A stretch of DNA of 63,969 nucleotides, counting the filler, from Planctomycetota bacterium (lineage in GTDB: Bacteria; Planctomycetota; Planctomycetia; JALXBF01): assembly GCA_026991575.1 (NCBI GenBank). It is 3 parts of 3 records of this genome, joined end to end, with 100 filler letters (N's around TTAATTAATTAA, not from the genome) between each part and the next. Parts side by side here need not be neighbours in the genome. Positions count along the whole stretch, not along the records: positions 21,851 to 43,266 come from JALXBF010000063.1; 2 more parts are not named here. One strand, written 5' to 3'. The translations under genes were made by a program, and so were the position numbers. The notes beneath the pieces were generated by a model that saw only the letters and a list, made by a program, of their open reading frames with translations, had not been told where the DNA came from and ran no database searches. Shown here piece by piece: positions 27,816-43,266 of this stretch; positions within the stretch are counted from its first letter, which is position 1; each line of letters begins with the position of its first letter.

Positions 27816-28787
27816 TTAGCCACGCCCCGGGCTGCTTGCATCGTTGGCGTCTCGGGGTGTGTCAACATTCTTGCCGGGTTCGGCACCTCCGAGGAAGCGG
27901 AACAGGAGGAGGACGGTTAACAGGCCCAGCGTGCCCAGGACAGCCCACAACCAGAACCGCGTGAGGGCGACACGCGCGGGCGTTTGGATTCCGAAAGCCT
28001 CGGGCCGGAACGCTTCCTCGGGCGGCGGCCTCAGCTGCACCTCAAGCACGTGAGCTTCCCACAGGGTGGGGCCACCCGGAACTGCGAACCTGCCGCGCTC
28101 TACTAGGGGTACGCCGACCGGCCCATCACGATATTCCAGCTCGCATACGCCGATGGGCCGGTCATCCGACTCCATGTACAGTCCCCATCGACGCACGATC
28201 CATGCCTTGTCGGGTGTAAACCAGAGCCGCAGGCGTGCTTGCTCCCGCCGGTACGTCGGCACACGAAGTTCAACCACCAGTTGGCGCTCGTCTCCCGCAC
28301 GGACCCACTTCTCGCCGAGCAGCGCGATACCGCCCGGCAGTTTGATCAGATCCACAAAAGCGCCGCCAAACCAACTGAGTGTGGCAAGGGGAAGCCATCC
28401 GCGGTTGCTCGGGATATACCAGAACTCGGAGGGGACGGCGGCCTTTGGCGACCACGATGTCAGGACAAAGATTCCCAGCTCACCCACGCGCCGGACGCGG
28501 AAACGGTGGCGGGGAGACCAGACTGATGCAAAAACTGTTGTTGCGCCGTCGCCGACCTCGTCGATCCTCACCGCAGGCCAGCGGGCCAGCAGGCGTATGG
28601 TCTCCTCCTCGCCAGACCGGCGCCGCACACGAATCGTCCAGATGGCGTTTCCGTACACGTCGACCAATCGCCTCCATGCGAACGAATATTCCTTGCGCCA
28701 GAGAGACTCTTCTCCGCCCGGAGCCTGGGCCCAGCCCAGACCCAGGAGCATCGGAAGGACCGTGAGCTTAGCGGCCTGCTCCGGCAT
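27816..28787 (-). CDS. Divergent family-A partner protein, 323 aa
   Basis: YGNAIW, ARWPAVRID, NRGWLP, PPPEEAFRPEAFGI, FWLWAVLGTLGLLTVLLL. Confidence 0.85.
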   Translation of the reverse strand: MPEQAAKLTVLPMLLGLGWAQAPGGEESLWRKEYSFAWRRLVDVYGNAIWTIRVRRRSGEEETIRLLARWPAVRIDEVGDGATTVFASVWSPRHRFRVRRVGELGIFVLTSWSPKAAVPSEFWYIPSNRGWLPLATLSWFGGAFVDLIKLPGGIALLGEKWVRAGDERQLVVELRVPTYRREQARLRLWFTPDKAWIVRRWGLYMESDDRPIGVCELEYRDGPVGVPLVERGRFAVPGGPTLWEAHVLEVQLRPPPEEAFRPEAFGIQTPARVALTRFWLWAVLGTLGLLTVLLLFRFLGGAEPGKNVDTPRDANDASSPGRG

Positions 28788-28808
28788 GCGGCCAAACTCC
28801 GTGCGATG

Positions 28809-29228
28809 CTATTCGCTACGCGCAGGCCCGACCGGGGGCCTGTGACGATTAATTTTTCGGATGGATGCAGCCACAGCCGAACCCCTTTGCTGATCAAAAG
28901 ACCTGCTTAGCGCCAGAAGTGCGAGAAGTCCATACAGACACGCGAACACTCGCAGCACGCGCCGCCGCCCCGCATGGGCCAGCCAGAGACCGGCCACAAC
29001 TTCAACCACTGCGATTGACGTCGCCAGCGGTGCACTTACGATCCCCACCACCGGCAGCCTCACGAAGCCGTGCTGGCCGATTGCCAGCAGCTTCGCCACA
29101 CCGGCAAACACCAGAAGGGCTGCTCCTGCGGGCTGAGCCACGCGGGCAAGGGCAGCAAACCCAGCACGCCAAACCGCCGCTGACGTGTCCCTGAACACGT
29201 CTGCAACCGCAGACAGCAACGCTGCCAT
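28809..29228 (-). pseudogene. MauE/DoxX-like membrane protein, frameshifted before its CGC motif
   Basis: LLVFAGVAKL...VVEVVAGLWL...LYGLLALLAL in frame. FGCGCIHPKN-stop appears only in a shifted frame near 28850-28885. Confidence 0.6.
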
Positions 29229-29295
29229 TCTGTCCTCTCCGTGCTCGGAGAGCTCGTTCCCTCCACAGCCCGGGTCCGGTGTCCAGACTTGCCCC

Positions 29296-29321
29296 ATTAT
29301 CCTCCTCCTCCTCCTTGTCAA
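29296..29321 (-). promoter_or_regulatory. Microsatellite-spaced promoter TTGACA-(AGG)5-ATAAT (14-bp spacer)
   Basis: Plus strand ATTAT-(CCT)5-TGTCAA; lies upstream of the family-A gene run. Confidence 0.7.
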
Positions 29322-30129
29322 GTCCCCGGATCCAGCGGTCTAGCGGGCGAAGCAGGGGCTCGCGGGCGGTGTTTGCCATGCGGATGGGGTGGCAGATTCA
29401 TCCCTCGGGAGCGCACGGCGGTGGCATGCCGACAGACCGTCGTTGGGTCGGCGCCGTGGCCGCGTGCACTTGCCTGCGTGAGGAGTGCGAATCCACCTGC
29501 GAGATGGCGAGCGGGCCGGCTCCCAGCCGAAGCCCTGCCGATGGGAATGAGGTGGTCAACCCGCCAGCTTGCTTCGGTGAGCGGGAGGGGGCTTCATGCC
29601 CCCCTCCCGCAAGGTTGATGGATAGCGCCGGCGCATCGCCGAGAAGATTTCTTCTCTGCCGAGCCGCGGGTGGGTCGATCCCGCCCGCGGCTCGGGCGGT
29701 GGGGTTTCCCTGGGCCGTCGGCGTGGGCGAGCAGATTTCGTTGTGCTTCGGGCGGGAGCGCGACCCCGCCGCGCCGACGCCGCGGGCGCCGGCCGCGGCG
29801 GCGGGGGGTTTTCCAATCGGCCGAAGAAAACACAACACGGGGCACCTCGGCGGCAGCCAACCGACCAGTCGGGACGGGACAGAAAGCCCCCGACATGACT
29901 ATCCGAGCAGGCGGACCGGTCTGTTAGCTTTCGAGTTCGCAAGACACCCCGCGGACAGGGCGAGCATCTCCATCATCGTCTGAGCGGCACAGACAGCGGG
30001 CCACTTGCCGGCAGCGCGATCGTGCAGCCGAAACCCACCCGTTGCGTGGTCCATCCGATCGTCCCTATCGGCTTCCATGGCATTGTCGGTTGAGTGCTCT
30101 ATGTCTTGCGAAGGCCGAACCAGGTTCCC

Positions 30130-31779
30130 CTACCGGCCGCTATCAGGCGGACCGCTGGCGGCGGCGCCGCATCCACAGCGTTGACGTTGGACTCTCATGC
30201 CCCCCTGCGGCACGGTAGTCGCCGTCGTTGAGTCCGATGCTCCTTCGGCCGTGGCGCGGTCCTGAAGTGTGAGGATGATGTGCCGCGTGTCTGCGCAACC
30301 GGAATCGTAGTAGACGGTTGCCCACGCGATGCCGTAGCCAGGTAGCTCTTTGACCAGCCATGCGTTCTGGTGAGAGCAGGCCAGCCACACACGCTCCCCC
30401 TTGACGTCGGTCAGGTGGGAGACGTGTTGCTCGCGCACGAGCGCCGGAGCGTACACGATGAGACGCCTGTCACGATCAGCCAGTTCCGGTGCGTAGACGA
30501 CCAGTTGCAGCGGCACCGGTGGATGTGTCAGGTAGTACTTCAGACGCAAGAAGCACTCGGCGTCGCCAACGAACACATCGCCGGGCTGGCTGTACTTTCG
30601 TACTTCCAGCGCTGCAAGCCGAGCAGCCTCGCGCGCGGGCACGCGATGCCATAGCGCGGCGATGGCCGAGAAGCTGACCGCGATCATGAACAGCGACAAC
30701 GCGACGCCGCGCCAGAATGTGCTCTCCAGCACGAACGCCTTACTGGCCAGCGTGATCATGGCAAGCGGGACGAGATGCACGAGGTAGCGTGCCTCGAAGA
30801 CACTCTGTTTCAGGATGACTGTGCCGAGCACGATTCCCAGCGCGTGAGTCAACGCGATGGCCAGGAACAACCACTCGAATGCAGCTCCGAACCAGGGCAC
30901 GATCAGCAGCAAGCCGAAGGCGGCAGCCAGCACGACGAGCCAGCCACTGGGAGGGGAACCCCACGTTATCGCGCTGATCGGCTCGCTGAACAGCTGTGCC
31001 CACGGACCGGCCAGAGCGTGCCAGCTGAGTGGCGGGATCCAGAACCCACCGCTGACGCGCTGAGCCTGGCCGACAAGCACGGGGACCCAAGGACCATAGG
31101 CTAGCGCCAGAAGGGCGACACTGACCACGCCGCGGCGTAGCAGCAAGTTTCGGACCGGCCGCTCAGCCGCCAGAGTCGCGCCCACGAGCCACAAGAGCTC
31201 TCCTGCAACGACGAACAACCCGTAGTTGTGGGAGTACACCGCGATCACACTCCCGGCCCACCATGCCAGCCAGGGGCCGAGCCGGTGCGGTGTACGGGCC
31301 ACGGCCAGGCAGCCGGCGACGCTCAACATCGTCCCGAACATAAGCATGGCATACATCCGTGCCATGTACGCCGTGCTCGCACACGCGGGATTGGCTGCAG
31401 TCAGCAGGAACGACACCAACGCGAGTTCCTCAGCCCGCTTGACCCGGGCGCTGAAGCCATACCATCCGGCCCAGAACACACACGCGACCGCAGCTACCGA
31501 AAGAATGCCCGACAGAAGGCGCATGCTGAAGATGCTGTCCCCGAGAAGCTCAATCCAGAAATGCAGCAGCAGGTAGTGGCCCGGGGGATGGGTATCCCCA
31601 GCGACCATGCGCAGCAGCTCGGGGACGGGTTGCGTCGCCACGGCCCAGCTGAACGCTTCGTCGTTCCAGAAGCAGACCTTGTCGGTCCAGAGGTTGATCC
31701 GCGCCAGCGTGGCCAGCAGTATGCCTGCCAGCAGGATCCGCCACGGCCGGCTTGTCTCTTGCCGGGCGCCCTGGGTCAC
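30130..31779 (-). CDS. GT-C superfamily integral-membrane glycosyltransferase (PMT/ArnT-like)
   Basis: FWNDEAFS, DTHPPGHYLLL, RLLS, ARMYAM, YSHNYG, PWVP, RYL; many TM helices. Confidence 0.88.
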   Translation of the reverse strand: MTQGARQETSRPWRILLAGILLATLARINLWTDKVCFWNDEAFSWAVATQPVPELLRMVAGDTHPPGHYLLLHFWIELLGDSIFSMRLLSGILSVAAVACVFWAGWYGFSARVKRAEELALVSFLLTAANPACASTAYMARMYAMLMFGTMLSVAGCLAVARTPHRLGPWLAWWAGSVIAVYSHNYGLFVVAGELLWLVGATLAAERPVRNLLLRRGVVSVALLALAYGPWVPVLVGQAQRVSGGFWIPPLSWHALAGPWAQLFSEPISAITWGSPPSGWLVVLAAAFGLLLIVPWFGAAFEWLFLAIALTHALGIVLGTVILKQSVFEARYLVHLVPLAMITLASKAFVLESTFWRGVALSLFMIAVSFSAIAALWHRVPAREAARLAALEVRKYSQPGDVFVGDAECFLRLKYYLTHPPVPLQLVVYAPELADRDRRLIVYAPALVREQHVSHLTDVKGERVWLACSHQNAWLVKELPGYGIAWATVYYDSGCADTRHIILTLQDRATAEGASDSTTATTVPQGGMRVQRQRCGCGAAASGPPDSGR

Positions 31780-33389
31780 GTGTCCCTCCCGTCGATGGAC
31801 TGCTCTGCGGTGCCACGTCGCTCGGCGGTCCGCTTGGCCTCGTGCCGCGACGCGCGCGAGCGAAAACCGCTAGCAGGCTCGATTCCGTCCCGTTTCCGAG
31901 CCGCCCAGGCGCGAACCGGTACCAGACAGCGGACGTCTACCCACTGTTCCAGGTGTAAACCGACAGTGCTTAGCAACTCGGCCAGTTCGTCCGACTTGGC
32001 GAAGTACACGGTACGCTCCAGCAGGCGAACGATACCGCCGTGGATGAGGCGACCGGTGAATGTGTCGACGTTCCCGTCGGCGAGGATCACGAGGCCTCCG
32101 GGTCGGACGACCCGGCTGATCTCGGCGACGGCCTGACCCAGCGACCGGAAATGGTGAGCGGCGTGCAAGCAGACAACGACGTCAAACACGCCACTCCTGA
32201 AGGGCAGGTGCTCGGCTTCGGACCGCACGACGGGCTGCCCGTGCACATTTCTAGGAAGTGGGTCCACGCCAACGTACCGTAGCCTCTGGTGTAAGCTGTC
32301 GGGCCACGCGTTGGCAAAGCCGCACGTGCCGCTGCCAACGTCCAGTACCCTTCCGGCACGCGGGCAGGGGATCAGTTCCAGGGCTGCGCAGTAGGTGGGT
32401 TGGAAAAACCACCGGTGCAGGAAGGCTCCGTCGTATAGCGGAGCGTAGCGGGCAAACAGGATCACATTGGAACGTCTTACCCGCCGGGCGGAATCTGGAT
32501 TCGGGCCGGCTGCAGTTGGTCGTCCCGGCCGGGAAGGCTGCGCCGCATGGGGCTGGAGAGCCTCGGCCATCCCACGGCCACGCAGCTGGGCCAACCGGAT
32601 CAGCATCCGCAAACCGTCACGCACAAAGCTAAGACGTGAGCCGGGACATTCCGTCCAGCGCACGGGCACGGCCCGGATCTGCTTGCCTGTCTTCCAGGCT
32701 AGTGTCAGCAGTTCCAGATCGAAGAGGTAGCCGGTCTCTGTTGTCCGTTCGACCAGCGGTCGCATGCGGTTACGGTCGAGCGCTTTGAAGCCGATTTGGG
32801 GATCGACGACGGGACAACCGGTTAGCCAACGGGCAGCGACGGCGAACAGACGGCTGCCCAGTCGCCGATACCAGAGCCGCTTGACCTTGCCTGCGGCGGC
32901 GCCGCGGACGCGGCAGCCGACCGCGAAATCGGCCCCCAGGGAGATGGCCTGGGCGAGTCGGAGTAGGTCTTCCGGTGGGGTTGCTCCATCGGCATCAGCG
33001 AACAGAACGCACTGCCCACGGGCGGCGAGGAACCCGGTCCGTAACGCCGCCCCCTTGCCCCGGTTCCGCTCGTGCCGGATCACACGCAGCGAGCCTGTTT
33101 GAGGCAGGACCTCCAGCAGTGCCTGCACAGGCTGGATGCTGCCGTCATCGACGATGATGACCTCGTGCCGATCCCCGAAAGCTTGCTCCAGAGCTGGCAA
33201 CAGACGCCGCAGGTGTGTCACCAGCCGCTCGTCCTCGTTGTAAGCCGGAATAACCACGGACACGGCGCATCCGGCGACGGTGTGCCGAGCGGAACGGGAA
33301 GCGGACCCGGCCAGACCTGGCCGGTCGTGCTTCTCGGCTTGACGTCCGGCGCAAGAAACCGCTGGCCTAATCCTGGTCCTACTCGCCAT
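31776..33389 (-). CDS. GT2 polyprenol-phosphate glycosyltransferase fused to class I SAM methyltransferase
   Basis: VVIPAYNE, IVDDGS, NRGKGAA, FADADG, DPQIGFK, YLFDLE; then VLDVGSGT, AEHLPF, FDVV, RVVRPGG. Confidence 0.85.
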   Translation of the reverse strand: MASRTRIRPAVSCAGRQAEKHDRPGLAGSASRSARHTVAGCAVSVVIPAYNEDERLVTHLRRLLPALEQAFGDRHEVIIVDDGSIQPVQALLEVLPQTGSLRVIRHERNRGKGAALRTGFLAARGQCVLFADADGATPPEDLLRLAQAISLGADFAVGCRVRGAAAGKVKRLWYRRLGSRLFAVAARWLTGCPVVDPQIGFKALDRNRMRPLVERTTETGYLFDLELLTLAWKTGKQIRAVPVRWTECPGSRLSFVRDGLRMLIRLAQLRGRGMAEALQPHAAQPSRPGRPTAAGPNPDSARRVRRSNVILFARYAPLYDGAFLHRWFFQPTYCAALELIPCPRAGRVLDVGSGTCGFANAWPDSLHQRLRYVGVDPLPRNVHGQPVVRSEAEHLPFRSGVFDVVVCLHAAHHFRSLGQAVAEISRVVRPGGLVILADGNVDTFTGRLIHGGIVRLLERTVYFAKSDELAELLSTVGLHLEQWVDVRCLVPVRAWAARKRDGIEPASGFRSRASRHEAKRTAERRGTAEQSIDGRDT

Positions 33390-35040
33390 TAGCTGTCCGG
33401 TCCTCTGCACGAGCCAGTGGGCGCAACTCGCGCAGCTCCGCGTAGCTCAGCTGCACCGTGCTCACCCCATCTCGGCCCACGTAGATCCAGCCCGGCCCGG
33501 CAGGCAGCTGGGCAACGATCTGGCCAGACGGGTCGACGACCGCAGATCCTCGATAGGCCTGTGCGGACAATTGCCAGCGCCGTGCCTGAATCCCCCGGCT
33601 CCGCAGTGCCCATCGATGTTCGACGAGTAGGCCCGGCGATGCGGCGAACCGTGATTCATCGCCTATGTGGATCACCGCGGCAATGTTGCTGCCCGGTGTG
33701 GCGTGCGCTCCCCAGTAGACGTACTTTTCCAGGCAGATCGCGACGCGAAACCGCATCTTGCGGCCATCGATGGAACAAATCATGGCTGGGCGCGGGGATC
33801 CGGGCATGAGCACAGGGGGTGGGGTGTGCCACAGCCCCAGAAGACGGCCTAGCTCCAGAAGCTCCGCCGGCGCTGTTTCCAAGAACCAGACTAGGGTCCG
33901 TTTCTCATACCACTGAAAGCTGCCGTCCGGGCCGACGCAGACAGCGCCATTAGTGCGGCGTCCGTTGGGGTAATGCAGTAGCAGGCCGATGATGAAATAG
34001 GTGTCCCAGCGTCTGGCAATGGGCAGGACGGTGTTTTCAAGATCCAAATTGCCCGGCATCTCCAGCAGACGCAGACTACCGTCCGAGGTTTCCTTGACGT
34101 ACGCTGTGCCCAACGTTGTCTCAGGCCACACCACGATGTTCGGACGATGCTCCTGCAGAGCAGCCAGTGTCAGTGCGGCCGCTGTCTCGTCGCGGCCTAG
34201 TGCGGGCACGCCTGCAATGGGCACAGCCGGCACGCCCGGTTGGACCAGAAGGACACCGGACACTGCGGGGGCAGAGCGGGAGCCGGAATGCTGCCAGGCC
34301 AGCCCAAGGAGGTTCGAGGCCACAAGCAGACTAACCCAGGCGGCGATGTACGCTCGCCGGGACGCACGTCTGGTCAGCCACAGGCTCAGTGCGGTCTGCT
34401 GGAACACATTCAGCCATGCCAGTCCCAGCGGCCCGAGGATGGACAGGAGTTGTCCCATTGGCAACGCGGACAGCGGGCTGTGGGACGCCAGTGTGGGCCA
34501 GGCAAACACCCACGCGCGTCCGTGCTCCAGGGATACGACGACCAACGGCCCAACGCACAGGAGGACGGCCGGCCAACGCGAAAGCAGGCTGTACACTTCG
34601 GCCACGATACCCAGCTGGATTCCGAAGAGAAGGCATGCCCCGAAAGCGGCACAGTAGCCGGCGGTTGAATCGGCTACCGAGCAGAGGTAGGGCGCGGCGA
34701 GCATTGCCGTGGTAGCTCCGACCACGGTACCCCAACCGAGGCCCCAGCGACCCAGCAGCGCGAAGCCGAAGAGCGGTACCCAGCAGAAGAGGGCGCCCAC
34801 AGTGATTCCAAACCGGTAGGTAACTACCCACGCACCTACCGTCACGGATACCAGTGCGGCGTTGAGAAGCAGACGGTACAGGGCGATCCGGAACCGTGAG
34901 AACCTTCGCGAGCCCGTGCTGCTGGACGATCCGTCGACGCTGACGGATGGCGTGAAGCGGCGCAGCGCGAGTGCGGAAAGTGACTCCAACCGGGTCCCTA
35001 GCAGTCTCAGCATTGGTCCGCCCGGTGCAGGACCGCGCAT
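33379..35040 (-). CDS. Apolipoprotein N-acyltransferase (Lnt)-like membrane nitrilase-fold enzyme
   Basis: N-terminal TM bundle, VQPG, VVWPET (E), YEKRTLV (K), AICLE (C), GSAVVDPSG. Confidence 0.78.
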   Translation of the reverse strand: MRGPAPGGPMLRLLGTRLESLSALALRRFTPSVSVDGSSSSTGSRRFSRFRIALYRLLLNAALVSVTVGAWVVTYRFGITVGALFCWVPLFGFALLGRWGLGWGTVVGATTAMLAAPYLCSVADSTAGYCAAFGACLLFGIQLGIVAEVYSLLSRWPAVLLCVGPLVVVSLEHGRAWVFAWPTLASHSPLSALPMGQLLSILGPLGLAWLNVFQQTALSLWLTRRASRRAYIAAWVSLLVASNLLGLAWQHSGSRSAPAVSGVLLVQPGVPAVPIAGVPALGRDETAAALTLAALQEHRPNIVVWPETTLGTAYVKETSDGSLRLLEMPGNLDLENTVLPIARRWDTYFIIGLLLHYPNGRRTNGAVCVGPDGSFQWYEKRTLVWFLETAPAELLELGRLLGLWHTPPPVLMPGSPRPAMICSIDGRKMRFRVAICLEKYVYWGAHATPGSNIAAVIHIGDESRFAASPGLLVEHRWALRSRGIQARRWQLSAQAYRGSAVVDPSGQIVAQLPAGPGWIYVGRDGVSTVQLSYAELRELRPLARAEDRTANGE

Positions 35041-35603
35041 TAGCTTCCCCCCTTTTCACGTTCGCCCGGGTCCGCGCGGCTGCTCGTTGCGCTTGCAGAA
35101 TGACCGGCGGAGCTAGCGACGGCGTGGGTCGGCAGCCTGACCGGTATGGTACCCACGTCGGGTCCTACGTAGAGCACAACCCACTCGTCGTTGGAAGCCT
35201 CACCGGTCGAGGGCCTGGCGTCCGGATCCGTGCGTACGCGAAAGACCAGGGTGATCGTCTGCCCGGGGGGGATGGACCGCGGCAGTTGGTCCGTGAGCAC
35301 GCAGTTGCAACTCGCCTGAGCGCCGTAGATAGTCAACGTGCGGCTGGTGAGGTTCTTGAGTCCCACGGGAACGCGGATCACTCCGTTGGACGTTGTCGTT
35401 GGCGCAAGGACGCTCACGGCGAGCTTTTCACCGCCCAGCCACGCGAGGAAATCGTGGAGCGATCCCTTCCAGAGCACACCTGCGCCGATCACGCCGAGGG
35501 CCAACAGCAGTCCCAGCGTGCTGCCCATGATCAAGGATCTAAACTGTGGCCGATCAAACGCCGCTCTAACCATGCCTGAGCGCGCTTCAGTCACCGCGTG
35601 CAT
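35040..35603 (-). CDS. DUF1573-like Ig-fold membrane-anchored protein (start uncertain)
   Basis: TM helix, then LKNLTSRTLTIYGAQASCNC...IPPGQ. Stop overlaps next start (TAATG). Confidence 0.72.
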   Translation of the reverse strand: MHAVTEARSGMVRAAFDRPQFRSLIMGSTLGLLLALGVIGAGVLWKGSLHDFLAWLGGEKLAVSVLAPTTTSNGVIRVPVGLKNLTSRTLTIYGAQASCNCVLTDQLPRSIPPGQTITLVFRVRTDPDARPSTGEASNDEWVVLYVGPDVGTIPVRLPTHAVASSAGHSASATSSRADPGEREKGGS

Positions 35604-36816
35604 CCCCTACGTCGAATTGACGCGATCGGCCCCAACTCCCCGCGGTGGGCTGTCGGGAGCCGACAGCCAGACCGGTCACAGAGGCCCGATCGACGACCGA
35701 CGGGGCCACTACTAGTGCCCGGGGCCGCCTGCCTTGCGCGGTGCGACCTGCACTGGACGTAGTCTTTTGTTTCGCTGCGGTGCGGTGCTGTGGGAGGGTG
35801 CCGTTCCGCACACCGGCACCATAGCCGCGCTTGCCGACGGCTGTGCTGTCTGGACGGGGAGAAAGGTGTCGCACTTCGACAACGATATCCTTGTGTACGC
35901 GGATGAGTAGAGGGGTCTGCCGGACCGATTTCGCCGGGGTCGGTAGCGCGACCACTTGCCAGCCGCTGGCCTGCAGCAAGGACTGCAAATCCTGGTCGGC
36001 GGACAGTAGGACGACCGTTGGCGGATTATCTTCGCCTGGCGGTGCGAAGAGCAGCGGACGCAGATGCTTCACTGAGCGTCGGCACTCAGAGCAAGTGGGA
36101 TCCAGTAGTAGCATGGAGTTCTTGCGGTGCTGGTTTTCCGTAACAGCGTGCAGCATACGAGGCACTGGTTGCCCAAGCCATTGATAGGGATCTACGAGGA
36201 CGCTGCCGCTTCTTGTGACAAGTACTCCCGAGTAGACCTCATGCACTGACCGAGCTGCGAGGGCGACAGAGACGGCGCTGACCGTTGCCAAGCAGGTAGC
36301 GATTCCGGTGCCCAGGGTGACGGACGTGGTGGTGGTGGCGTCAGACCCCGATCTGGTGGCTCGAACGAAGAGTAGTGTTCCAACAGTGAAGTCGAACATG
36401 CTGACCAGTAGGGGATGGATCTGGACGAACGGACCAAAGCAACCGCACGTATCGCGGCCGAGTCCCGCCATCGTTAGAGCGGCGGCTCCCAGAAGCCACC
36501 ACCACAGGGCTGCGAGTCGCTGCAGGGTTCGCCACTGAGGGGTGATGATCAGGACGGTGCCGAGCCAGAGCTCAACGGGAACGGCAGCGTAGCTGACGGT
36601 GGCGAGCCAGCCATCTGCGGCTACGACCCAGCCGAATCGCCACAGTGCTGCCAGCTTGAAGACACTCGCCGCGACAAGAGTGAGTCCAAGTACGACAGGC
36701 AGAGCAGCGCCGGACAAGCTAGCGACCAGAAGGTTCTTGACCGGGCTTTGGCCGCCTTTCGGAGCGCGTGCCGCGGTGTGTTCGGCTACGTTCGTCGTCT
36801 GGCGACTCGTTCTCAT
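35587..36816 (-). CDS. MauE/DoxX-family membrane protein with C-terminal thioredoxin-like CxxC domain
   Basis: LVAASVFKL, VELWLG, TCGCFG, then DPYQWLGQ...LLDPTCSECRR. Confidence 0.8.
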   Translation of the reverse strand: MRTSRQTTNVAEHTAARAPKGGQSPVKNLLVASLSGAALPVVLGLTLVAASVFKLAALWRFGWVVAADGWLATVSYAAVPVELWLGTVLIITPQWRTLQRLAALWWWLLGAAALTMAGLGRDTCGCFGPFVQIHPLLVSMFDFTVGTLLFVRATRSGSDATTTTSVTLGTGIATCLATVSAVSVALAARSVHEVYSGVLVTRSGSVLVDPYQWLGQPVPRMLHAVTENQHRKNSMLLLDPTCSECRRSVKHLRPLLFAPPGEDNPPTVVLLSADQDLQSLLQASGWQVVALPTPAKSVRQTPLLIRVHKDIVVEVRHLSPRPDSTAVGKRGYGAGVRNGTLPQHRTAAKQKTTSSAGRTAQGRRPRALVVAPSVVDRASVTGLAVGSRQPTAGSWGRSRQFDVGDARGD

Positions 36817-37213
36817 GGGTGGCTTCCCCTCAGGGACGGACTTTTTCGCCCGTAAGGCACCTAGTGCACTGCTTCAGTGCGTTCGGGGGTGCCGAACGCG
36901 CGCCGTTCCATCCGGCGCCTTGTCCGTGGTCGTGCGTCGGATCCGTGGTCGCGGAACCGCACCAGCGGCACGGCGACGCAGCCCCAAGGGAGGGTACCAG
37001 AGCCAAAGCCCCAATTGCCACGAGTTTCGCTGCGGGATCCCGGATGCGTGTCCCGCATGACACTTTCGCGTTTGGGTACTAATGGCACGTGGCCCTGGTA
37101 CCCTCGTCTAGCTCCTTGTGACGCCGAACCCCCCTGCCGTGCAGGGCTGCCACCGAGGGACCCACTGCCCGACGGAAACCCCAACGCGCTGGCTCGTGCC
37201 AGCGCGTCAGCCT

Positions 37214-38290
37214 CTAACCGCCGCTAGCCCTTTCCGTGGCACGTGCCCGGCGCAGTGCGAGCAGCGCAAGCAGCGCCAGGACGAGTGCGGTGACGGATCC
37301 TGCCGCCAGGACGAGCGCCCGACTACTGGAAGTCTGCTCAATCGCCGACTCGTCGATCCCGTAGTACGGCAAGTAAAACGCCTCAGCGGGATGGCGGCAT
37401 GCAGTACTGCCAAGGATGGTGTATTCCAACAAGTCGCGTTGGAGGATGGCAGGAGTTCCGTTCATGGTTTCTGCGAGGACCTGTTCAACGACGTACCTGC
37501 TGGGCTCAAGGGATGAACCGTCGGCGTAGAAGACTCTTGTCGTGGTCACGCACTGAACGGTGGGATGAGTAGAAACGACCCTAGCCGAGACGCATGCATA
37601 CTGCCTGGCTGGATCGAAAGAGATGTGCCACTGTCGGTTCGGTCGCGCGAACCAGCAGCGATGCGCGACCGTGGTGGAGACGACGGCCTTCACGCTACCG
37701 CCGGGCGTCCGGACACAGCGGGACGAGAAGCCTCGGGTGCCGGCAAGGGCCACCGTGGCTGGCAGCCCGCAGGCGACTATCGGTGACAATACGGCCATGA
37801 CGGCATCTGACAGCCGGGAACCGTGCTTCCCAACCGCATGGAAGTCCGGATATCGAGCGTACCAGCGGGGGTTTGCCAGGCCACGCCGCAGCGTGTAGTA
37901 GCCTTCTCCTATGCGTAGTACGCTAGCGGAGTACCGTTCGTTGAGCAGAACGACGTGTTCGTTGCCGTTAGAGAGTCGCCTGCGAATACGCAACCTTCGG
38001 TCGCGCAGTCGGAAGCACACCCAAAATTCGTTCGATATGCTGCCAGGAGGTTCTTCGGATGCGGATGCCTGAGGTACCTTCCACACGCGGCTCAAATGGA
38101 ACTCTCGGCCGTCGACGGCGTTCAAGTATTTCGCTTCCAAGGCCCGTACATGTGGCAACAACTGGCCGCACGAGCCGGCATTGTCTTTCTGGCTAGCCTG
38201 CTCGCGCGCATCCACAGCGCTGATCGCGCCCAAGGCCAGGGAGCACAAAGCCCCTATTGTGAGGTGGCTTAGTTGTCTATGCACTAACAT
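37214..38290 (-). CDS. Family-B partner protein B4
   Basis: Signal peptide; LEAKYL..DGREF, FWVCFR, WY..YPDF, CRHPAEAFYLPYYGIDES, TM plus RR. Confidence 0.85.
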   Translation of the reverse strand: MLVHRQLSHLTIGALCSLALGAISAVDAREQASQKDNAGSCGQLLPHVRALEAKYLNAVDGREFHLSRVWKVPQASASEEPPGSISNEFWVCFRLRDRRLRIRRRLSNGNEHVVLLNERYSASVLRIGEGYYTLRRGLANPRWYARYPDFHAVGKHGSRLSDAVMAVLSPIVACGLPATVALAGTRGFSSRCVRTPGGSVKAVVSTTVAHRCWFARPNRQWHISFDPARQYACVSARVVSTHPTVQCVTTTRVFYADGSSLEPSRYVVEQVLAETMNGTPAILQRDLLEYTILGSTACRHPAEAFYLPYYGIDESAIEQTSSSRALVLAAGSVTALVLALLALLALRRARATERASGG

Positions 38291-38511
38291 TCCTCTTCCT
38301 GGTCGTTCCACCTGCACTGCAGCGCGCCCTGTCGTTGGCAGTCGTTATTGCGGTAGGCGCACCTGGTCTTCTTGCTAGGAGTCCATCCGTCGCAGTGGAC
38401 GTCTAGGCTAGCCAGTGCAGGGCGTTCCACGGACCGAGCGGTTGCGAAAGCTAAGAGGAGGGACAGCATGCCGAGCGAGGAGGCAACGGCGACGAGCAGG
38501 GTCTGCTTCAT
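38284..38511 (-). CDS. Exported Cys-rich peptide B4, ending at an amber codon inside the terminal CxC
   Basis: MKQTLL signal; CDGWTPSKKTRCAYRNNDCQRQGALQCRWNDQEEEC-TAG-CIDN-TAA. Confidence 0.8.
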   Translation of the reverse strand: MKQTLLVAVASSLGMLSLLLAFATARSVERPALASLDVHCDGWTPSKKTRCAYRNNDCQRQGALQCRWNDQEEEC

Positions 38512-38686
38512 GGCCTGGCTCCGTCGTGATTGACCCGTCGCAGTTAGGGCTATCGGCACCGACTCTCCTTCTCCGCCGCCCCGTCGAGAGGCTGAGGCGT
38601 CAAAACTAATGTTTCCGGGCCGCGGCCCTGGCCGGGCCGCGCCATTTGGCCTTGGCCGTTGTCTTCGCACGGGCACCAAGTCCGGA

Positions 38687-39739
38687 TCAAGTGGCGGAGT
38701 TCGGACGGTTCCATGCTCGCCGCAATGCCAACAGGGCGAGCAAGGCCAGAAGCGCGGCAGCGGCCGATGCTGCCGCCAGCACGGCCACGCGCAGCGTTCC
38801 CAATGGCCTGATCACCGACTCGTCAATGCCGTAGTACGGCAGGTAGAAGGCTTCCGGGGGATGTCGACATAGCGTACTGCTAGCGATCGTGGATTCTGTT
38901 ACCAATTGTTGCACAACGTGGGTAGAGCTCTCGGACGATTCCCTAAGGACTTGTTCAACTACATAGCGACTCGGCTGGACCGGCGTGTGCCCAGAATAGG
39001 TGACAGTGGCGGTCACCTCGCTCGTGAACGAGTCGTGCGTGGACGTTACTCTAGACGCGATACACGCGAACCGCTGGCTGGGGTCGAGTGTCACCTCCCA
39101 TTGCTGACCTGTGCGCACCAACCACGATTGATGTTCGTGGATCGGGGTGGAGCGGATGCGCAGCAAACCCTCCTGGGTATACGCGCATCGGGAAGAGAAT
39201 ACCCTGTCATGACCGGCCAGCAGGGCAGTGACCGGTGGACCGCCGGCAACCACAGGAGCCAGGATGGCCAACGTAGCCTCCGCTGCCTGTGACCCGTGCG
39301 CCCCGATGGAGTAGAGATCGGGGTACCAGCCCTGCCATTGCGAGACGGCGGTATGCCGCTCGAGAAAGTATCCTCCAGCGGCGAGCCGCACGACGCGCGC
39401 GGAGTAGTACTCGTTCACGAGAATAATGCGTTCCTTGGCGTCCGGACGGCGCGGCCGCCAACGAACGAGTAGCTTCCTTTCCCGCGGCCGGAAGCAGATC
39501 CAGAAGTCATTCGGCGGTGACTGGACCGAGTCCTGACCGTCTTGGTTATCAACCGGTGCGACCAGCTTCCAACGCTGCACGACGTGGAATTCTCGGCCAT
39601 CAAGTTCGTCCAAGTAGCGGGCCTCAAGCTCCCGCACCTGCGGTAGCACCTCGGAGCACGCGGTACCGTCGGGATGTTGCTGAACCGGTGCTGGAGCCGT
39701 CGCCGCTGGTACCATGGCCAACAGCACTACCACCCACAT
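38687..39739 (-). CDS. Family-B partner protein B3, 350 aa
   Basis: MWVVVLLAMVPAATA signal; paralog motifs; C-terminal TM plus RRAWNRP. Confidence 0.88.
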   Translation of the reverse strand: MWVVVLLAMVPAATAPAPVQQHPDGTACSEVLPQVRELEARYLDELDGREFHVVQRWKLVAPVDNQDGQDSVQSPPNDFWICFRPRERKLLVRWRPRRPDAKERIILVNEYYSARVVRLAAGGYFLERHTAVSQWQGWYPDLYSIGAHGSQAAEATLAILAPVVAGGPPVTALLAGHDRVFSSRCAYTQEGLLRIRSTPIHEHQSWLVRTGQQWEVTLDPSQRFACIASRVTSTHDSFTSEVTATVTYSGHTPVQPSRYVVEQVLRESSESSTHVVQQLVTESTIASSTLCRHPPEAFYLPYYGIDESVIRPLGTLRVAVLAAASAAAALLALLALLALRRAWNRPNSAT

Positions 39740-39759
39740 GCGAACGTCTCCGCTGCGCG

Positions 39760-40011
39760 CTAGCCCCTGCACTCGCACTGGTTCATCTGATTAATCCACA
39801 TGCAGCGAAGTAGCCCCTGTTCCTGGCAACGATTGTTCCGAAGTGCACACCAGTTCGGATTGCTGGGCTGCCAGCCGTCGCACTGAGGGGGAGGGCCACC
39901 TTCTGCCCCCGGAACCGGTCGGTGCGCCGCTGCCAGCAAGGCCGCAACTGCCAACAGCACCGCTAGCACACTGGACGACGAGAACAGCGCCGCCAGGAGC
40001 GTTCGTTTCAT
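39760..40011 (-). CDS. Exported 6-Cys peptide B3, 83 aa
   Basis: MKRTLL plus hydrophobic signal; C-x10-C-x6-C-x7-C-x8-CxC; GGAGG RBS. Confidence 0.87.
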   Translation of the reverse strand: MKRTLLAALFSSSSVLAVLLAVAALLAAAHRPVPGAEGGPPPQCDGWQPSNPNWCALRNNRCQEQGLLRCMWINQMNQCECRG

Positions 40012-40072
40012 GGTCACGCCTCCGCTGAACGCTCGAACGGTGGCGTTGGTCATACAGCCCGATACCACCCCA

Positions 40073-40095
40073 ATTATCCTCCTCCTCCTTGTCAA
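40073..40095 (-). promoter_or_regulatory. Microsatellite-spaced promoter TTGACA-(AGG)4-ATAAT (11-bp spacer)
   Basis: Plus strand ATTAT-(CCT)4-TGTCAA, ~60 nt upstream of peptide B3. Confidence 0.7.
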
Positions 40096-40191
40096 GACCT
40101 CAGGCACGAAGGTCTCGGCCTCCTGGCCGCGGCCCTGGCCAGGCAGGGGCGGTGAGCCGGCTGACGTGTTGCCGCCAGCACAAGTGGTGGC

Positions 40192-41241
40192 TCACACGCT
40201 GGAATTCGGACGATTCCATGCTCGCCGCAATGCCAACAGGGCGAGCAAGGCCAGAAGCGCGGCAGCGGCCGATGCTGCCGCCAGCACGGCCACGCGCAGC
40301 GTTCCCGATGGCCTGATCACCGACTCGTCAATGCCGTAGTACGGCAGGTAGAACGCCTCGGGAGGATGCTGGCACGGTGTGGGCGGCCCAATGGTGTACT
40401 CGATCAGCAGGTGATGCACCACGCTTGGTGACTTGCCAGCCACAGACCTGACTAGCTCCTCCACAACATATTTGGCGGGAAGCAGGGACGTCGGAGCTCG
40501 CTCAATCACTTCTCTTCTCACTTCGCCGTGGAACGATCTCCACGTGTCGGTTGCCTTCGACCTGACGCACGCAAAGTGTCGGCTGGGATCAAGGACGACT
40601 TCCCATTGGCGGTCCGAGCGCGCGTACCAGGGCTGATGTTCCGCGCTGCTAGAGACCTGCAAATGTACAAGGCCTTCAGAGGTTAGGACGCAGCGACATG
40701 AGAATCCGTGTTCTCCTTTAAGCATAGCGGCGACTGGTGGCCCCCCTGCAATTATCGGCGAGAGGATTGCCAGAACGGGATCGGCTGCGCGAGAGCCATG
40801 GATGCCAATCGAGTAGAAATCGGGGTACCACCCTTCCCATTGCGGGGTGGCTGTGTGTCGTTCGAGGAGGTACCCGCCCTCGGCGAGGCGCAAAACGCGG
40901 GCGGAGTAGAGGTCGTTTACGAGGATGACACGCTGGTTGCCTTTCAGGCGGCTCGGCCGCTCGCGAATCAGGATCTTCTTGTCTCGCAGCCGGAAGCAGA
41001 CCCAGTAGTCGGTCGTTCGTGGTTGGGCCGACGCCACTTGATCGGGTGCATCAGCGGGTGTGTCCAGCTTCCAGCGCCGGGCCACGTGGAACTCCCGACC
41101 GTCGATCTCATCCAAGTATTGGGCTTCGAGCGCTCGGACCTTGCTTAAGACGTCTGAGCACGGAAGTCCAGCCGGCTGTTGGTAAAGGAACAGGGAGCCG
41201 CTAATCACAAAGGCTATCGGTAACAGGTTCGCCGGCCACAC
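40192..41241 (-). CDS. Family-B partner protein B2, 349 aa
   Basis: GGAGG RBS plus GTG; paralog motifs; C-terminal TM. Confidence 0.88.
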   Translation of the reverse strand: MWPANLLPIAFVISGSLFLYQQPAGLPCSDVLSKVRALEAQYLDEIDGREFHVARRWKLDTPADAPDQVASAQPRTTDYWVCFRLRDKKILIRERPSRLKGNQRVILVNDLYSARVLRLAEGGYLLERHTATPQWEGWYPDFYSIGIHGSRAADPVLAILSPIIAGGPPVAAMLKGEHGFSCRCVLTSEGLVHLQVSSSAEHQPWYARSDRQWEVVLDPSRHFACVRSKATDTWRSFHGEVRREVIERAPTSLLPAKYVVEELVRSVAGKSPSVVHHLLIEYTIGPPTPCQHPPEAFYLPYYGIDESVIRPSGTLRVAVLAAASAAAALLALLALLALRRAWNRPNSSV

Positions 41242-41262
41242 GTGGTCCTCCTCCGGAACACG

Positions 41263-41514
41263 CTATCGGTGGCATTCGCAGTGGCCCATGTCCATATTCC
41301 ACTTGCACTGCAGTTGTCCCTGCCGCTGACAGCTGTTGTTGCGGAACGCACAGCGCTTCGGATCGCTGGGCTGCCATCCGTCGCACTGAGGGAGACCGCC
41401 ACCTTTGGCTCCCAGAACCGGTCGGTGCACCGCTGCCAGCAAGGCCGCAACTGCCAACAGCACAGCGAGCAGACCGGATGATGAGAACAGCGCTGCCAGG
41501 AGCGTCCGTTTCAT
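41263..41514 (-). CDS. Exported 6-Cys peptide B2, 83 aa
   Basis: Same signal and Cys spacing; ends CKWNMDMGHCECHR. Confidence 0.87.
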   Translation of the reverse strand: MKRTLLAALFSSSGLLAVLLAVAALLAAVHRPVLGAKGGGLPQCDGWQPSDPKRCAFRNNSCQRQGQLQCKWNMDMGHCECHR

Positions 41515-41575
41515 GGTCACGCCTCCGCTGAACGCTCGAACGGTGGCGTTGGCCATACAGCCCGATACCACCCCA

Positions 41576-41598
41576 ATTATCCTCCTCCTCCTTGTCAA
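41576..41598 (-). promoter_or_regulatory. Microsatellite-spaced promoter TTGACA-(AGG)4-ATAAT (11-bp spacer)
   Basis: Plus strand ATTAT-(CCT)4-TGTCAA upstream of peptide B2. Confidence 0.7.
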
Positions 41599-41694
41599 GG
41601 CCTCAGGCACGAAGGCCTTGGCCTCCTGGCCACGGCCCTGGCCAGGCAGCGGCGGTGAGCCGGCTGACGCGTTTCCGCCGGCACAAGTGGTGGC

Positions 41695-42744
41695 TCACAC
41701 GCTGGAATTCGGACGGTTCCATGCTCGCCGCAATGCCAACAGGGCGAGCAAGGCCAGAAGCGCGGCAGCGGCCGATGCTGCCGCCAGAACGGCCACGCGC
41801 AGCGTTCCCGATGGCGTGATCACCGACTCGTCAATGCCATAGTACGGCAGGTAGAACGCCTCGGGAGGATGCTGGCACGGTGTGGGAGGCCCAATGGTGT
41901 ACTCGATCAGTAGGTGATGCACCACGCTTGGTGATTTGCCAGCCACAGACCTGGCTAGCTCCTCCACGACGTATTGACTCGGCAGTAGAGAGGGGGTGTT
42001 AGTGTAGGTGGTTTGGGCCGTTACTTCTCCTGCGAAGGAATCCCAGCGTGAGGTCACCCTTGACTTGGTGCAAGCAAACTGCTGGTTGGGATCCAAGGTA
42101 ACTTCCCATTGCCGGTCCGTGCGCACGAGCCATGGCTGGTACTGGGTGGTGGAAGAGGCACGGAGCCGGAGCAATCCTTTGGAAGTGAGGCCGCAGCGAG
42201 AAGTGAACCCATGCTCGCCCGCAAGCAAGGCAGCAATCGGCGGACCAAGGGCCACTACGGGCGACAACAGCGCTAACACCGGGTCGGCTGCCCGCAACCC
42301 ATGGATCCCTATCGAGTGGAAATCAGGGCACCACCTTTCCCAGGAGGGTGGGCCTGCGTGGCGCTCCAGGTAATAGCCACCCCCGGCCAGTCTCAGGACG
42401 CGGGCTGAGTAGGATTCGTTGACCAGGATGATTCGTTCTTGACCGTCTGGGCGCCCCGAATGCCAACGGATCAGCAGCCGCTTCTGACGCAGCCGAAGGC
42501 AAATCTGGAAATCGTTCGTTGGCGGTTGTGCCGACGCCACTTCATCACGGTTGTCCGTCGGCGACGCCAGCTTCCAGATCTGCCTAACCCGGAACTCCTG
42601 CTCGTCGATTGTGTTCAGGTACCGTGCCTCGAGCGTTCGAATGTGCGGCAACACCTGCGAGCATCCAGCACTGTTCGCCTGTTGGTGGGCAAGGTGGAAG
42701 TTGGCCAGAGCAGAGAGTGTGGCGAGGACCACCACCAGGCACAT
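41695..42744 (-). CDS. Family-B partner protein B1, 349 aa
   Basis: AGGAGG RBS, MCLVVVLATLSALA signal; paralog motifs; C-terminal TM. Confidence 0.88.
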   Translation of the reverse strand: MCLVVVLATLSALANFHLAHQQANSAGCSQVLPHIRTLEARYLNTIDEQEFRVRQIWKLASPTDNRDEVASAQPPTNDFQICLRLRQKRLLIRWHSGRPDGQERIILVNESYSARVLRLAGGGYYLERHAGPPSWERWCPDFHSIGIHGLRAADPVLALLSPVVALGPPIAALLAGEHGFTSRCGLTSKGLLRLRASSTTQYQPWLVRTDRQWEVTLDPNQQFACTKSRVTSRWDSFAGEVTAQTTYTNTPSLLPSQYVVEELARSVAGKSPSVVHHLLIEYTIGPPTPCQHPPEAFYLPYYGIDESVITPSGTLRVAVLAAASAAAALLALLALLALRRAWNRPNSSV

Positions 42745-42764
42745 GAACGCCCTCCTGCTGCATG

Positions 42765-43016
42765 CTAGGGAGTGCACTCGCAATGGTTCATCATCATATT
42801 CCACTTGCACTGCAGTTGTCCCTGGCGCTGACAGCTGTTGTTGCGGAACGCACAGCGCTTCGGATCGCTGGGCTGCCATCCGTCGCACTGAGGGAGACCG
42901 CCACCTTTGGCTCCCAGAACCGGTCGGTGCGCCGCTGCCAGCAAGGCCGCAACTGCCAACAGCACAGCGAGCAGACTGGATGATGAGAACAGCGCCGCCA
43001 GGAGCGTCCGTTTCAT
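42765..43016 (-). CDS. Exported 6-Cys peptide B1, 83 aa
   Basis: Same signal and Cys spacing; ends CKWNMMMNHCECTP. Confidence 0.87.
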   Translation of the reverse strand: MKRTLLAALFSSSSLLAVLLAVAALLAAAHRPVLGAKGGGLPQCDGWQPSDPKRCAFRNNSCQRQGQLQCKWNMMMNHCECTP

Positions 43017-43077
43017 GGTCACGCCTCCGCTGGACGCCCGAACGGTGGCGTTGGTCATACAGCCCGATACCACCCCA

Positions 43078-43124
43078 ATTATCCTCCTCCTCCTCCTCCT
43101 CCTCCTCCTCCTCCTCCTTGTCAA
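43078..43124 (-). promoter_or_regulatory. Microsatellite-spaced promoter TTGACA-(AGG)12-ATAAT (35-bp spacer)
   Basis: Plus strand ATTAT-(CCT)12-TGTCAA; flanks nearly identical to the n=4 copies. Confidence 0.7.
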
Positions 43125-43220
43125 GGCCTCAGGCACGAAGGCCTTGGCCTCCTGGCCACGGCCTTGGCCAGGCAGCGGCGGTGAGCCGGCTGACGCGTTT
43201 CCGCCGGCACAAGTGGTGGC

Positions 43221-43257
43221 TCAGACGCTAGAGTTCGGACGGTTCCATGCTCGCCGC
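43221..43257 (-). CDS. 3' end of a further family-B partner gene, cut by gap
   Basis: Encodes ...RRAWNRPNSSV-stop, identical to the B1/B2 ends. Confidence 0.7.
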
Positions 43258-43266
43258 AGATACAAC

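Follow-up and report, generated by a model that had tools for sequence, protein, structure and literature searches.

Predicted promoters with microsatellite spacers ahead of one family of envelope gene clusters in a planctomycete genome: candidate contingency loci

What role could a simple repeat play when it fills the entire spacer of a bacterial promoter? The question is raised by the window studied here, a stretch of 63,969 nucleotides (filler included) from assembly GCA_026991575.1 of a planctomycete (Planctomycetota bacterium; Planctomycetia, JALXBF01), in which the motif TTGACA-(AGG)n-ATAAT occurs four times, with the repeat tract occupying the whole interval between hexamers that resemble the -35 and -10 elements of a sigma-70 promoter. 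The window consists of three contigs (C60, C63 and C70) joined by N, and all four copies of the motif lie in C63 (JALXBF010000063.1), which takes up positions 21851-43266. We found that they belong to a set of at least 15 such sites in the genome, each with a microsatellite in the spacer position. The analysis directly establishes this architecture, its non-random placement and that it is confined to a single gene-cluster family and a single bacterial family, and it shows that tract length changes fast between paralogous copies. As for the role of the repeats, we consider it probable, with considerable room for doubt, that they are slippage-variable promoter spacers acting as contingency loci.

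Four predicted promoters in the window

All four copies are on the minus strand and run toward lower coordinates, with TTGACA starting at 29321, 40095, 41598 and 43124 and with n = 5, 4, 4 and 12, respectively:

29296..29321, minus strand: predicted promoter core TTGACA-(AGG)5-ATAAT, 14-bp spacer, GGGG after the -10 element; read from the sequence, with a gapless contig from metagenome run X1
40073..40095, minus strand: predicted promoter core TTGACA-(AGG)4-ATAAT, 11-bp spacer, ahead of cassette 3 (peptide and partner)
41576..41598, minus strand: predicted promoter core TTGACA-(AGG)4-ATAAT, 11-bp spacer, ahead of cassette 2; X1 contig over 41430-41737, gapless
43078..43124, minus strand: predicted promoter core TTGACA-(AGG)12-ATAAT, 35-bp spacer, ahead of cassette 1; 142 nt from the contig end

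An earlier note on this DNA had reported these four copies, leaving the strand unstated, and had calculated spacers to GATAAT of 14, 11, 11 and 35 bp, with n = 6 as the only repeat number that gives 17 bp; all four copies are present and the arithmetic proved correct on recomputation. Its observations that the copy at 29296 has the same core in unrelated flanks, and that n differs between otherwise near-identical copies, were likewise borne out. The 29321 copy has nothing but the core in common with the other three, and the flanks of the three cassette copies are 92-95% identical (239/251, 228/248 and 241/253 aligned positions), their sole large difference being a 24-base gap in the tract. The 15-mer TTGACAAGGAGGAGG has four matches in the window, compared with a mean of 0.01 in shuffled sequences, and none of 100 shuffles gave four. 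The n = 12 tract lies near the end of C63, its 36 bases were masked as repeat in the contig mapping, and its length is that of the deposited assembly only.

The four window motifs are best read as sigma-70-type promoters with spacers made wholly of microsatellite. When TTGACN and TANNNT pairs were counted across the genome, they peaked at spacers of 16, 17 and 18 bp (47, 72 and 52 pairs, where each of the others gave 14-34), indicating that this organism uses canonical spacing. One repeat-free paralogous cluster, on the minus strand of C118, is preceded by TTGACG-N17-TAAAGT, which is spaced at the genomic peak, and the repeat-spaced sites of the whole genome set lie 36-210 nt upstream of an open reading frame (ORF) on the same strand, with the exception of one on C104 for which the start is likely farther away. 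These three lines of evidence strengthen the promoter interpretation offered in the earlier note. A simple promoter scan found no sigma-70-like site with 16-18-bp spacing before the cassette genes.

A genome-wide set tied to one cluster family

The genome (G000; 4.96 Mb in 191 contigs, 64% G+C, 97.8% complete) contains eight (AGG)n tracts with n of at least 4, and every one of them is framed by TTGAC[A/T] and ATAA[T/C]. To place these among other repeats, a census was made of microsatellites with a unit of 1-6 nt, at least four copies and at least 12 nt in length. It gave 138, comprising 125 trinucleotide, 11 dinucleotide, one tetranucleotide and one pentanucleotide repeat. Fifteen of the 138 stand directly after TTGAC, where about 1.5 would be expected from the 6914 TTGAC sites in 2 x 4.96 Mb; these are the eight AGG tracts, one AAG tract and six of the 11 dinucleotide repeats in the genome. 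Outside the window, the set comprises the following predicted promoters:

C74: two AGG promoters, n = 10 and n = 5
C39: AGG promoter, n = 4, followed by an AG interruption and two further units
C129: AGG promoter, n = 4, after TTGACT
C118: ninth trinucleotide promoter, TTGACA-GAG(AAG)6-ATAAT
C6: dinucleotide-spaced promoter, (AG)7
C28: dinucleotide-spaced promoter, (TG)8
C33: two dinucleotide-spaced promoters, (AC)13 and (GT)10
C104: dinucleotide-spaced promoter, (AG)7
C151: dinucleotide-spaced promoter, (TC)6

Seven repeat units (AGG, AAG, AG, TG, AC, GT and TC) are therefore found in one promoter slot. Thirteen of the 15 copies have a perfect TTGACA as their -35 hexamer, and every tract is followed by a -10-like hexamer (GATAAT, TAGCAT, TAGACT, GAGAAT, TAACAT or GATTAT/TACAAT), with an alternative TAGAGT at 16 bp in C129.

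All 15 sites are intergenic, upstream of the first gene of a cluster and on its strand, and all head members of one paralogous cluster family. The parts of this family are a small Cys-rich secreted protein of 83-170 aa, a MauE-like membrane protein that often has a CGCFG motif and a C-terminal thioredoxin-like portion, a DUF1573 protein, a 'partner' protein of 320-500 aa with a C-terminal membrane anchor, and a PMT_2-like GT-C glycosyltransferase of 600-700 aa; the Pfam matches to DUF1573 and PMT_2 score above the cut-off. ORFs downstream of the repeat promoters are intact.

Five dinucleotide microsatellites have no preceding TTGAC (C73:19726-19737, C127:14981-14998, C153:16411-16422, C54:1952-1963 and C109:36042-36055). 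The tract in C73 is preceded by ATGACA and lies close behind a terminator-like hairpin, the one in C153 is followed by ATGCATGC, a sequence that also stands after ATAAT in C74 and C118, and the one in C54 is at a contig end.

Taxonomic range of the repeat-spaced promoters

The earlier note had proposed scanning genomes for TTGACA(AGG)nATAAT. The frame accounts for all eight (AGG)n tracts of four or more units in this genome; the AGG form was found neither in 40 relatives nor in 400 genomes sampled across the phylum. Among species-representative genomes, 34 loci matched and none had ATAAT directly after the tract. The only other genome in the family (G001, from a sister genus) has at least seven repeat-spaced promoters (L172, L174, L177, L178, L181, L187 and L189) with spacers of 17-23 bp made of (GA)n in four cases, (CA)n in two and (AAG)8 in one. 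They precede homologous genes for MauE-like, DUF1573 and Cys-rich peptide proteins. For example, the G001 homolog of the C74 peptide has AAG repeats in place of the AGG found here, and L178 is spaced at exactly 17 bp to GAGAAT. Five genomes from neighboring families (G002-G006) showed no repeat-spaced TTGAC promoter, only non-repetitive chance matches.

A metagenome scan returned at least 114 matching loci, and among the matches listed only the contig L077 has the exact frame, TTGACA(AGG)5ATAATGGGGG, with a 31-nt core identical to the n = 5 copy of the window. This tract also precedes a MauE-like ORF, starting at +92 compared with +93 for the window gene, which is 49% identical to the window MauE-like protein over 72 aa, and the flanks are unalignable. 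Other metagenome loci come from unrelated organisms: L109 has TTGACA(AGG)4GTAGG-GATAAT, spaced at 17 bp, in unrelated surroundings, L052 has TTGACA(AGG)5ATATTAAG, and L050 and L055 are apparently one locus with n = 4 in one and n = 9 in the other, at 44% G+C.

Tract length and the case for slippage

Differences in tract length are seen between copies that are otherwise nearly the same. The two C74 copies have n = 5 and n = 10 and are identical at 199 of 204 positions from TTGACA onward, and the cassettes of the window have n = 4 versus n = 12 with 95% identical flanks. When the spacers of both genomes are taken together (11 bp three times, 14 twice, 15 twice, 17 twice, 19 four times, 20, 21 and 23 twice each, and 27, 29 and 35 once each), they scatter around the optimum, with two at 17 bp (C104, and L178 in G001) and about nine one unit off. 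Since seven different units occupy the same slot of paralogous promoters in two genera, selection appears to have acted for repetitiveness and not for a particular sequence, which points to either the mutability or a physical property of the repeats as the trait that matters. The variety of units in one slot and the length differences between near-identical paralogs also add weight to the slippage switch that the earlier note had proposed.

Under the mechanism we favor, replication slippage would add or remove units, so that the spacer would lengthen or shorten by 3 bp at a time (2 bp where the repeat is a dinucleotide). Efficient initiation by RNA polymerase would be confined to spacers near 17 bp, which for AGG is equivalent to n = 6, and each cluster would be switched or tuned stochastically and heritably, such that different subsets of clusters would be expressed across a population. 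The four window copies, at 11, 11, 14 and 35 bp, would then be weak or OFF in the assembled consensus.

Several observations weigh against contingency loci of this kind. Public metagenome contigs show no indels in the tracts, with X1 giving n = 5 at 29296 and n = 4 at 41576 without gaps, although these runs are available as assembled contigs (X1-X4 were mapped) from which assembly drops rare variants, the n = 12 tract was masked, and the best-matching run is probably the source sample, which makes its agreement with n = 5 and n = 4 not independent. A contig in X3 from a strain about 91% alike stops at 29300, the edge of the tract. L077 keeps the identical n = 5 core despite saturated flanks, which suggests either that the tract is stable or that n = 5 itself has a role. 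Four or five trinucleotide units are short for high slippage rates, the tracts with n = 10 and n = 12 sit four and six steps from n = 6, and none of the eight AGG promoters has n = 6, with the caveat of the alternative TAGAGT at 16 bp in C129. The genome has both MutS and MutL and hence no general defect in repair, and mismatch-repair loss was accordingly rejected as a source of instability. Lastly, ATAAT extends to ATAATG in five of nine AGG-framed copies (the eight here and L077), which puts a start codon behind an AGGAGG run.

Alternative explanations for the repeats

Four other explanations were weighed, two of which we hold to be unlikely and the others more so. One of the first two is that the repeats are a physical sensor, flipping under superhelical stress into H-DNA or another triplex, G-quadruplex or Z-DNA and thereby changing how the -35 and -10 elements are placed relative to each other; the number of repeats would in that case define a threshold, not an ON/OFF state, and expression would be sensitive to supercoiling or temperature. 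Homopurine-homopyrimidine and alternating purine-pyrimidine repeats are classic formers of H-DNA and Z-DNA, and all spacer repeats fall into one or the other class (AGG, AAG, AG and TC; TG, AC and GT). A two-tetrad quadruplex needs four GG runs, which is the number supplied by the lowest AGG count of 4, and both the conservation of n = 5 in L077 and the absence of n = 6 would fit such a sensor. The (AGG)n tracts of four or more units and the homopurine tracts are indeed compatible in sequence with G-quadruplex or H-DNA, whereas those made of TG, AC or GT are unable to form G-quadruplexes. Among slippage-prone units, however, these two repeat classes are also the commonest, any single-polymerase geometry is difficult to square with spacers of 29-35 bp, and slippage explains directly the length differences between near-identical paralogs. 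A blend of the two ideas, which we offer as speculation with a low chance of being right, is that the spacers, at least 15 in number, would be combined mutational and physical switches, in which repeat number would be the heritable state and the superhelical stress or temperature of the vent habitat would flip an H-DNA or Z-DNA conformation. Cells of one population would then differ in which of about a dozen paralogous clusters for envelope glycosylation and Cys-rich peptides they express, as a defense against phages or grazers, for instance.

Neutral drift is about as doubtful as the physical sensor. In this case, the tracts would be mutational debris with no regulatory role, accumulating in decaying or redundant promoters of paralogous clusters, where they would have expanded after selection on single promoters weakened. 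Most spacers are non-canonical (11, 11, 11, 14, 14, 15, 15 and 19-35 bp), and with so many paralogous clusters in the genome (21 PMT_2-like hits) single copies are possibly dispensable. Decay is nevertheless difficult to reconcile with the perfect TTGACA of 13 out of 15 copies, the intact -10-like hexamers and downstream ORFs, the retention of the architecture in two genera, and the perfect conservation of the 31-nt core in L077 between saturated flanks. Microsatellites are also rare in the rest of the non-coding DNA, and the 11 dinucleotide repeats of the census are all that the genome has.

Very improbable, in our estimation, is an element that acts at the RNA level. The tract would be transcribed by read-through or from a start farther upstream, and would offer ribosomes a Shine-Dalgarno sequence in several registers, or a standby site, for a short leader ORF that begins in ATAATG; alternatively, it would be a GGA-rich, CsrA-type protein-binding site. 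The Shine-Dalgarno consensus is indeed AGGAGG, and besides the five of nine copies with ATAATG, the 22-codon ORF that starts there in L077 ends in TGATG, overlapping the main start codon, the window MauE-like ORF shares its frame with the ATG at 29297, and the tandem cassettes could be co-transcribed. But a start codon 5-10 nt after AGGAGG was not found in all copies, ATAATG being present in four of the eight in this genome: the cassettes have ATAATT, C129 has ATAATA, the n = 10 copy of C74 has ATAACG, and in C39 the ATG is followed immediately by TAA. The peptide genes carry a GGAGG of their own 7 nt before ATG, the AAG, AG, TG, AC, GT and TC repeats in the same slot of paralogs are none of them Shine-Dalgarno sequences, and the conserved flanks of the tract are exactly the -35 and -10 hexamers. 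The varied repeat units exclude a Shine-Dalgarno, CsrA-site or poly-Arg role as a general explanation, and two further points against these roles are that the bases after ATAAT are inconsistent and that the peptides have ribosome-binding sites of their own.

The last explanation, that (AGG)n encodes poly-arginine in an N-terminal extension of the peptide (MPEALTRRRR...IIGVVSGCM...), has next to no chance of being correct, for although a frame is open from GTG at 40107, 41610 or 43136 through the tract into the peptide ORF, the C74 tract lies in a different frame and would be poly-Glu in an ORF that stops short of the gene, the C39 tract runs into an immediate stop, the dinucleotide repeats that fill this slot in paralogs would put the frame out, and the signal peptide has an ATG and a good ribosome-binding site right before it. 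The Shine-Dalgarno and poly-Arg coding readings were both rejected on the mixed repeat units, the frames, the bases after ATAAT and the separate ribosome-binding sites.

Comparison with known phase-variable systems

Repeat-driven phase variation is textbook biology for host-adapted pathogens. Known examples with the repeat in the promoter spacer are the (TA)n of hifA/hifB in Haemophilus influenzae and, in Neisseria meningitidis, the poly-G of porA and the poly-C of opc. Slippage-variable spacers in the planctomycete would resemble these loci in having a simple sequence repeat between recognizable -35 and -10 hexamers, as found at the four sites of the window and the 15 of the genome, where unit changes alter the spacing seen by the sigma factor. 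They also resemble them in having several loci per genome with surface or envelope products, which are predicted here from signal peptides, C-terminal anchors and the DUF1573 and PMT_2 Pfam matches. Unlike the pathogen loci, nine of the promoters have a trinucleotide and would change in 3-bp steps, the repeat makes up the entire spacer, most AGG tracts are short (4-5 units), and all 15 loci belong to one paralogous cluster family. The host also differs, being an uncultured and presumably free-living planctomycete from vent metagenomes. That tracts of simple sequence repeats between core promoter elements cause phase variation, which the earlier note had taken as established, is supported by the literature (PMC2791445).

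The closest parallel in repeat type is the vlhA (pMGA) family of Mycoplasma gallisepticum, in which GAA repeats are located beyond the core promoter, some 40 nt ahead of the transcription start, and the promoters have no sigma-70 consensus, so that an activator protein or alternative sigma factor is invoked (PMC6258824). Both systems have a purine trinucleotide repeat with conserved flanks before a multigene family arranged in cassettes (here eight AGG and one AAG promoter, and (AAG)8 in G001), in both the repeat number differs between copies (in vlhA also between strains), and in both one permissive number is proposed. In contrast to vlhA, the repeat here is the -35/-10 spacer of a consensus-like promoter and does not stand upstream of it. 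There is no sequence or gene homology between vlhA and the planctomycete loci.

Two other systems are nadA of N. meningitidis, with (TAAA)n upstream of the core promoter (PMC2791445), and sabA of Helicobacter pylori, with a T-tract promoter (PMC4081817). In these, as is proposed here, repeat length tunes promoter output through geometry; their tracts, however, are upstream of -35 and act via repressor operators or bending, whereas the planctomycete repeats are inside the core promoter. No description of phase variation in Planctomycetes was found in the literature searched, as judged by titles and abstract openings, nor did that literature yield a trinucleotide repeat in the spacer of a phase-variable promoter. 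New relative to the known spacer-type switches are thus the trinucleotide spacers, the repeat that is the whole spacer, a genome-wide set tied to one envelope-cluster family, and a phylum and habitat with no described phase variation.

The layout is that of the random on/off switch familiar from pathogens, seen here as architecture. Should switching of the tracts be real, about a dozen paralogous envelope-modifying clusters would be subject to bet-hedging in a free-living vent bacterium, which would point to strong fluctuating selection on the cell surface, for example by phages or grazers, and would mark these uncharacterized clusters as surface-variation loci. The set would also provide a natural series (n = 4, 5, 10 and 12, AAG and dinucleotides) for the effects of spacer length and sequence on a planctomycete promoter.

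Genes downstream of the repeat promoters

The window holds three tandem peptide-partner cassettes, each with its own AGG promoter, a fourth peptide-partner pair, and the genes behind the n = 5 promoter:

39760..40011, minus strand: Cys-rich secreted peptide, 83 aa, predicted signal peptide, GGAGG 7 nt before ATG
41263-41514, 42765-43016 and 38284-38514: paralogs of the peptide
38687..39778, minus strand: partner protein, 363 aa, predicted C-terminal membrane anchor
40192-41241, 41695-42888 and 37214-38317: paralogs of the partner, 43-61% identity between paralogs
28809..29228, minus strand: MauE-like membrane protein, first gene after the n = 5 promoter (PF07291, E 8.5e-4, below the curated cut-off)
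27816-28787 and 26425-27372, minus strand: partner-2 paralogs following the MauE-like gene
35587-36816, minus strand: MauE-like protein with CGCFG
35040-35603, minus strand: DUF1573 protein
33379-35040, minus strand: CN-hydrolase/Lnt-like protein
31776-33410, minus strand: glycosyltransferase family 2 (GT2) and methyltransferase
30130-31779, minus strand: membrane protein, 549 aa

The genes at 30130..36816 on the minus strand are the remaining cluster genes, downstream of the cassettes. The fourth pair (37214-38514, within the region 37214-38679) has no repeat promoter and is probably read through from cassette 3, since the sole candidate upstream is a TTGACG that lacks a -10 element at 17 bp. 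The proposal in the earlier note that the switch picks which peptide-partner pair is expressed therefore turned out to be too narrow, as the 29321 copy serves a MauE-like gene and partner paralogs and the fourth pair is repeat-free.

Neither the Cys-rich peptide nor the partner matched a Pfam family. Protein Atlas neighbors of the partner are unnamed, mostly planctomycete clusters, and one LolA/TP_0789-like match, with a weak score of 0.80, is taken as a lead only. These neighbors and the DUF1573 hits are in keeping with the assignment of the genome to the planctomycetes. An AlphaFold2 model of the partner built from the four paralogs had a mean predicted local distance difference test (pLDDT) value of 48.8, too poor for a fold search. 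The C151 MauE-like protein gave only a self-match when compared with 40 relatives (E<=1e-5), and within the genome jackhmmer and phmmer matched it to itself alone; its paralogs were missed by these searches because they are too divergent, and were recovered via the CGCFG motif and hidden Markov models built from paralogs.

A strong expansion is seen in the PMT_2-like GT-C family, for which hmmsearch gave 21 hits (E<=1e-5) across the genome, mostly in such clusters. Twelve PMT_2-like genes with no assigned repeat promoter were scanned, and two had one within 6.5 kb upstream. For the other ten, one had a canonical promoter, six had neither type, and three were at contig edges.

In C74, about 180 nt downstream of the two promoters (C74:11700-11895 and C74:13850-14041; L013 and L014) are 97% identical, compared with 68% for the upstream DNA. 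A 51-codon ORF from the second ATG overlaps the start of the peptide gene in this contig and may be a conserved leader or upstream ORF.

A dispersed repeat near the n = 5 promoter

Just upstream of the n = 5 promoter, window positions 29330-29900 (plus strand) belong to a dispersed repeat family with 47 blastn high-scoring segment pairs (E<=1e-10) genome-wide at 70-86% identity. Some 175 nt, including two conserved GC-rich hairpins, form a core common to 23 copies. No Rfam family reached its gathering score in 28500-43266, and matches in 29250-30000 were at chance level (E 0.3-0.6). The repeat may be an unnamed small RNA or an element similar to repetitive extragenic palindromes (REP) or miniature inverted-repeat transposable elements (MITE). 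It coincides with a spike in contig depth in all four metagenome runs, and further copies lie near several other repeat promoters (C118, C33, C127 and C153) and, in L077, some 270 nt ahead of the promoter.

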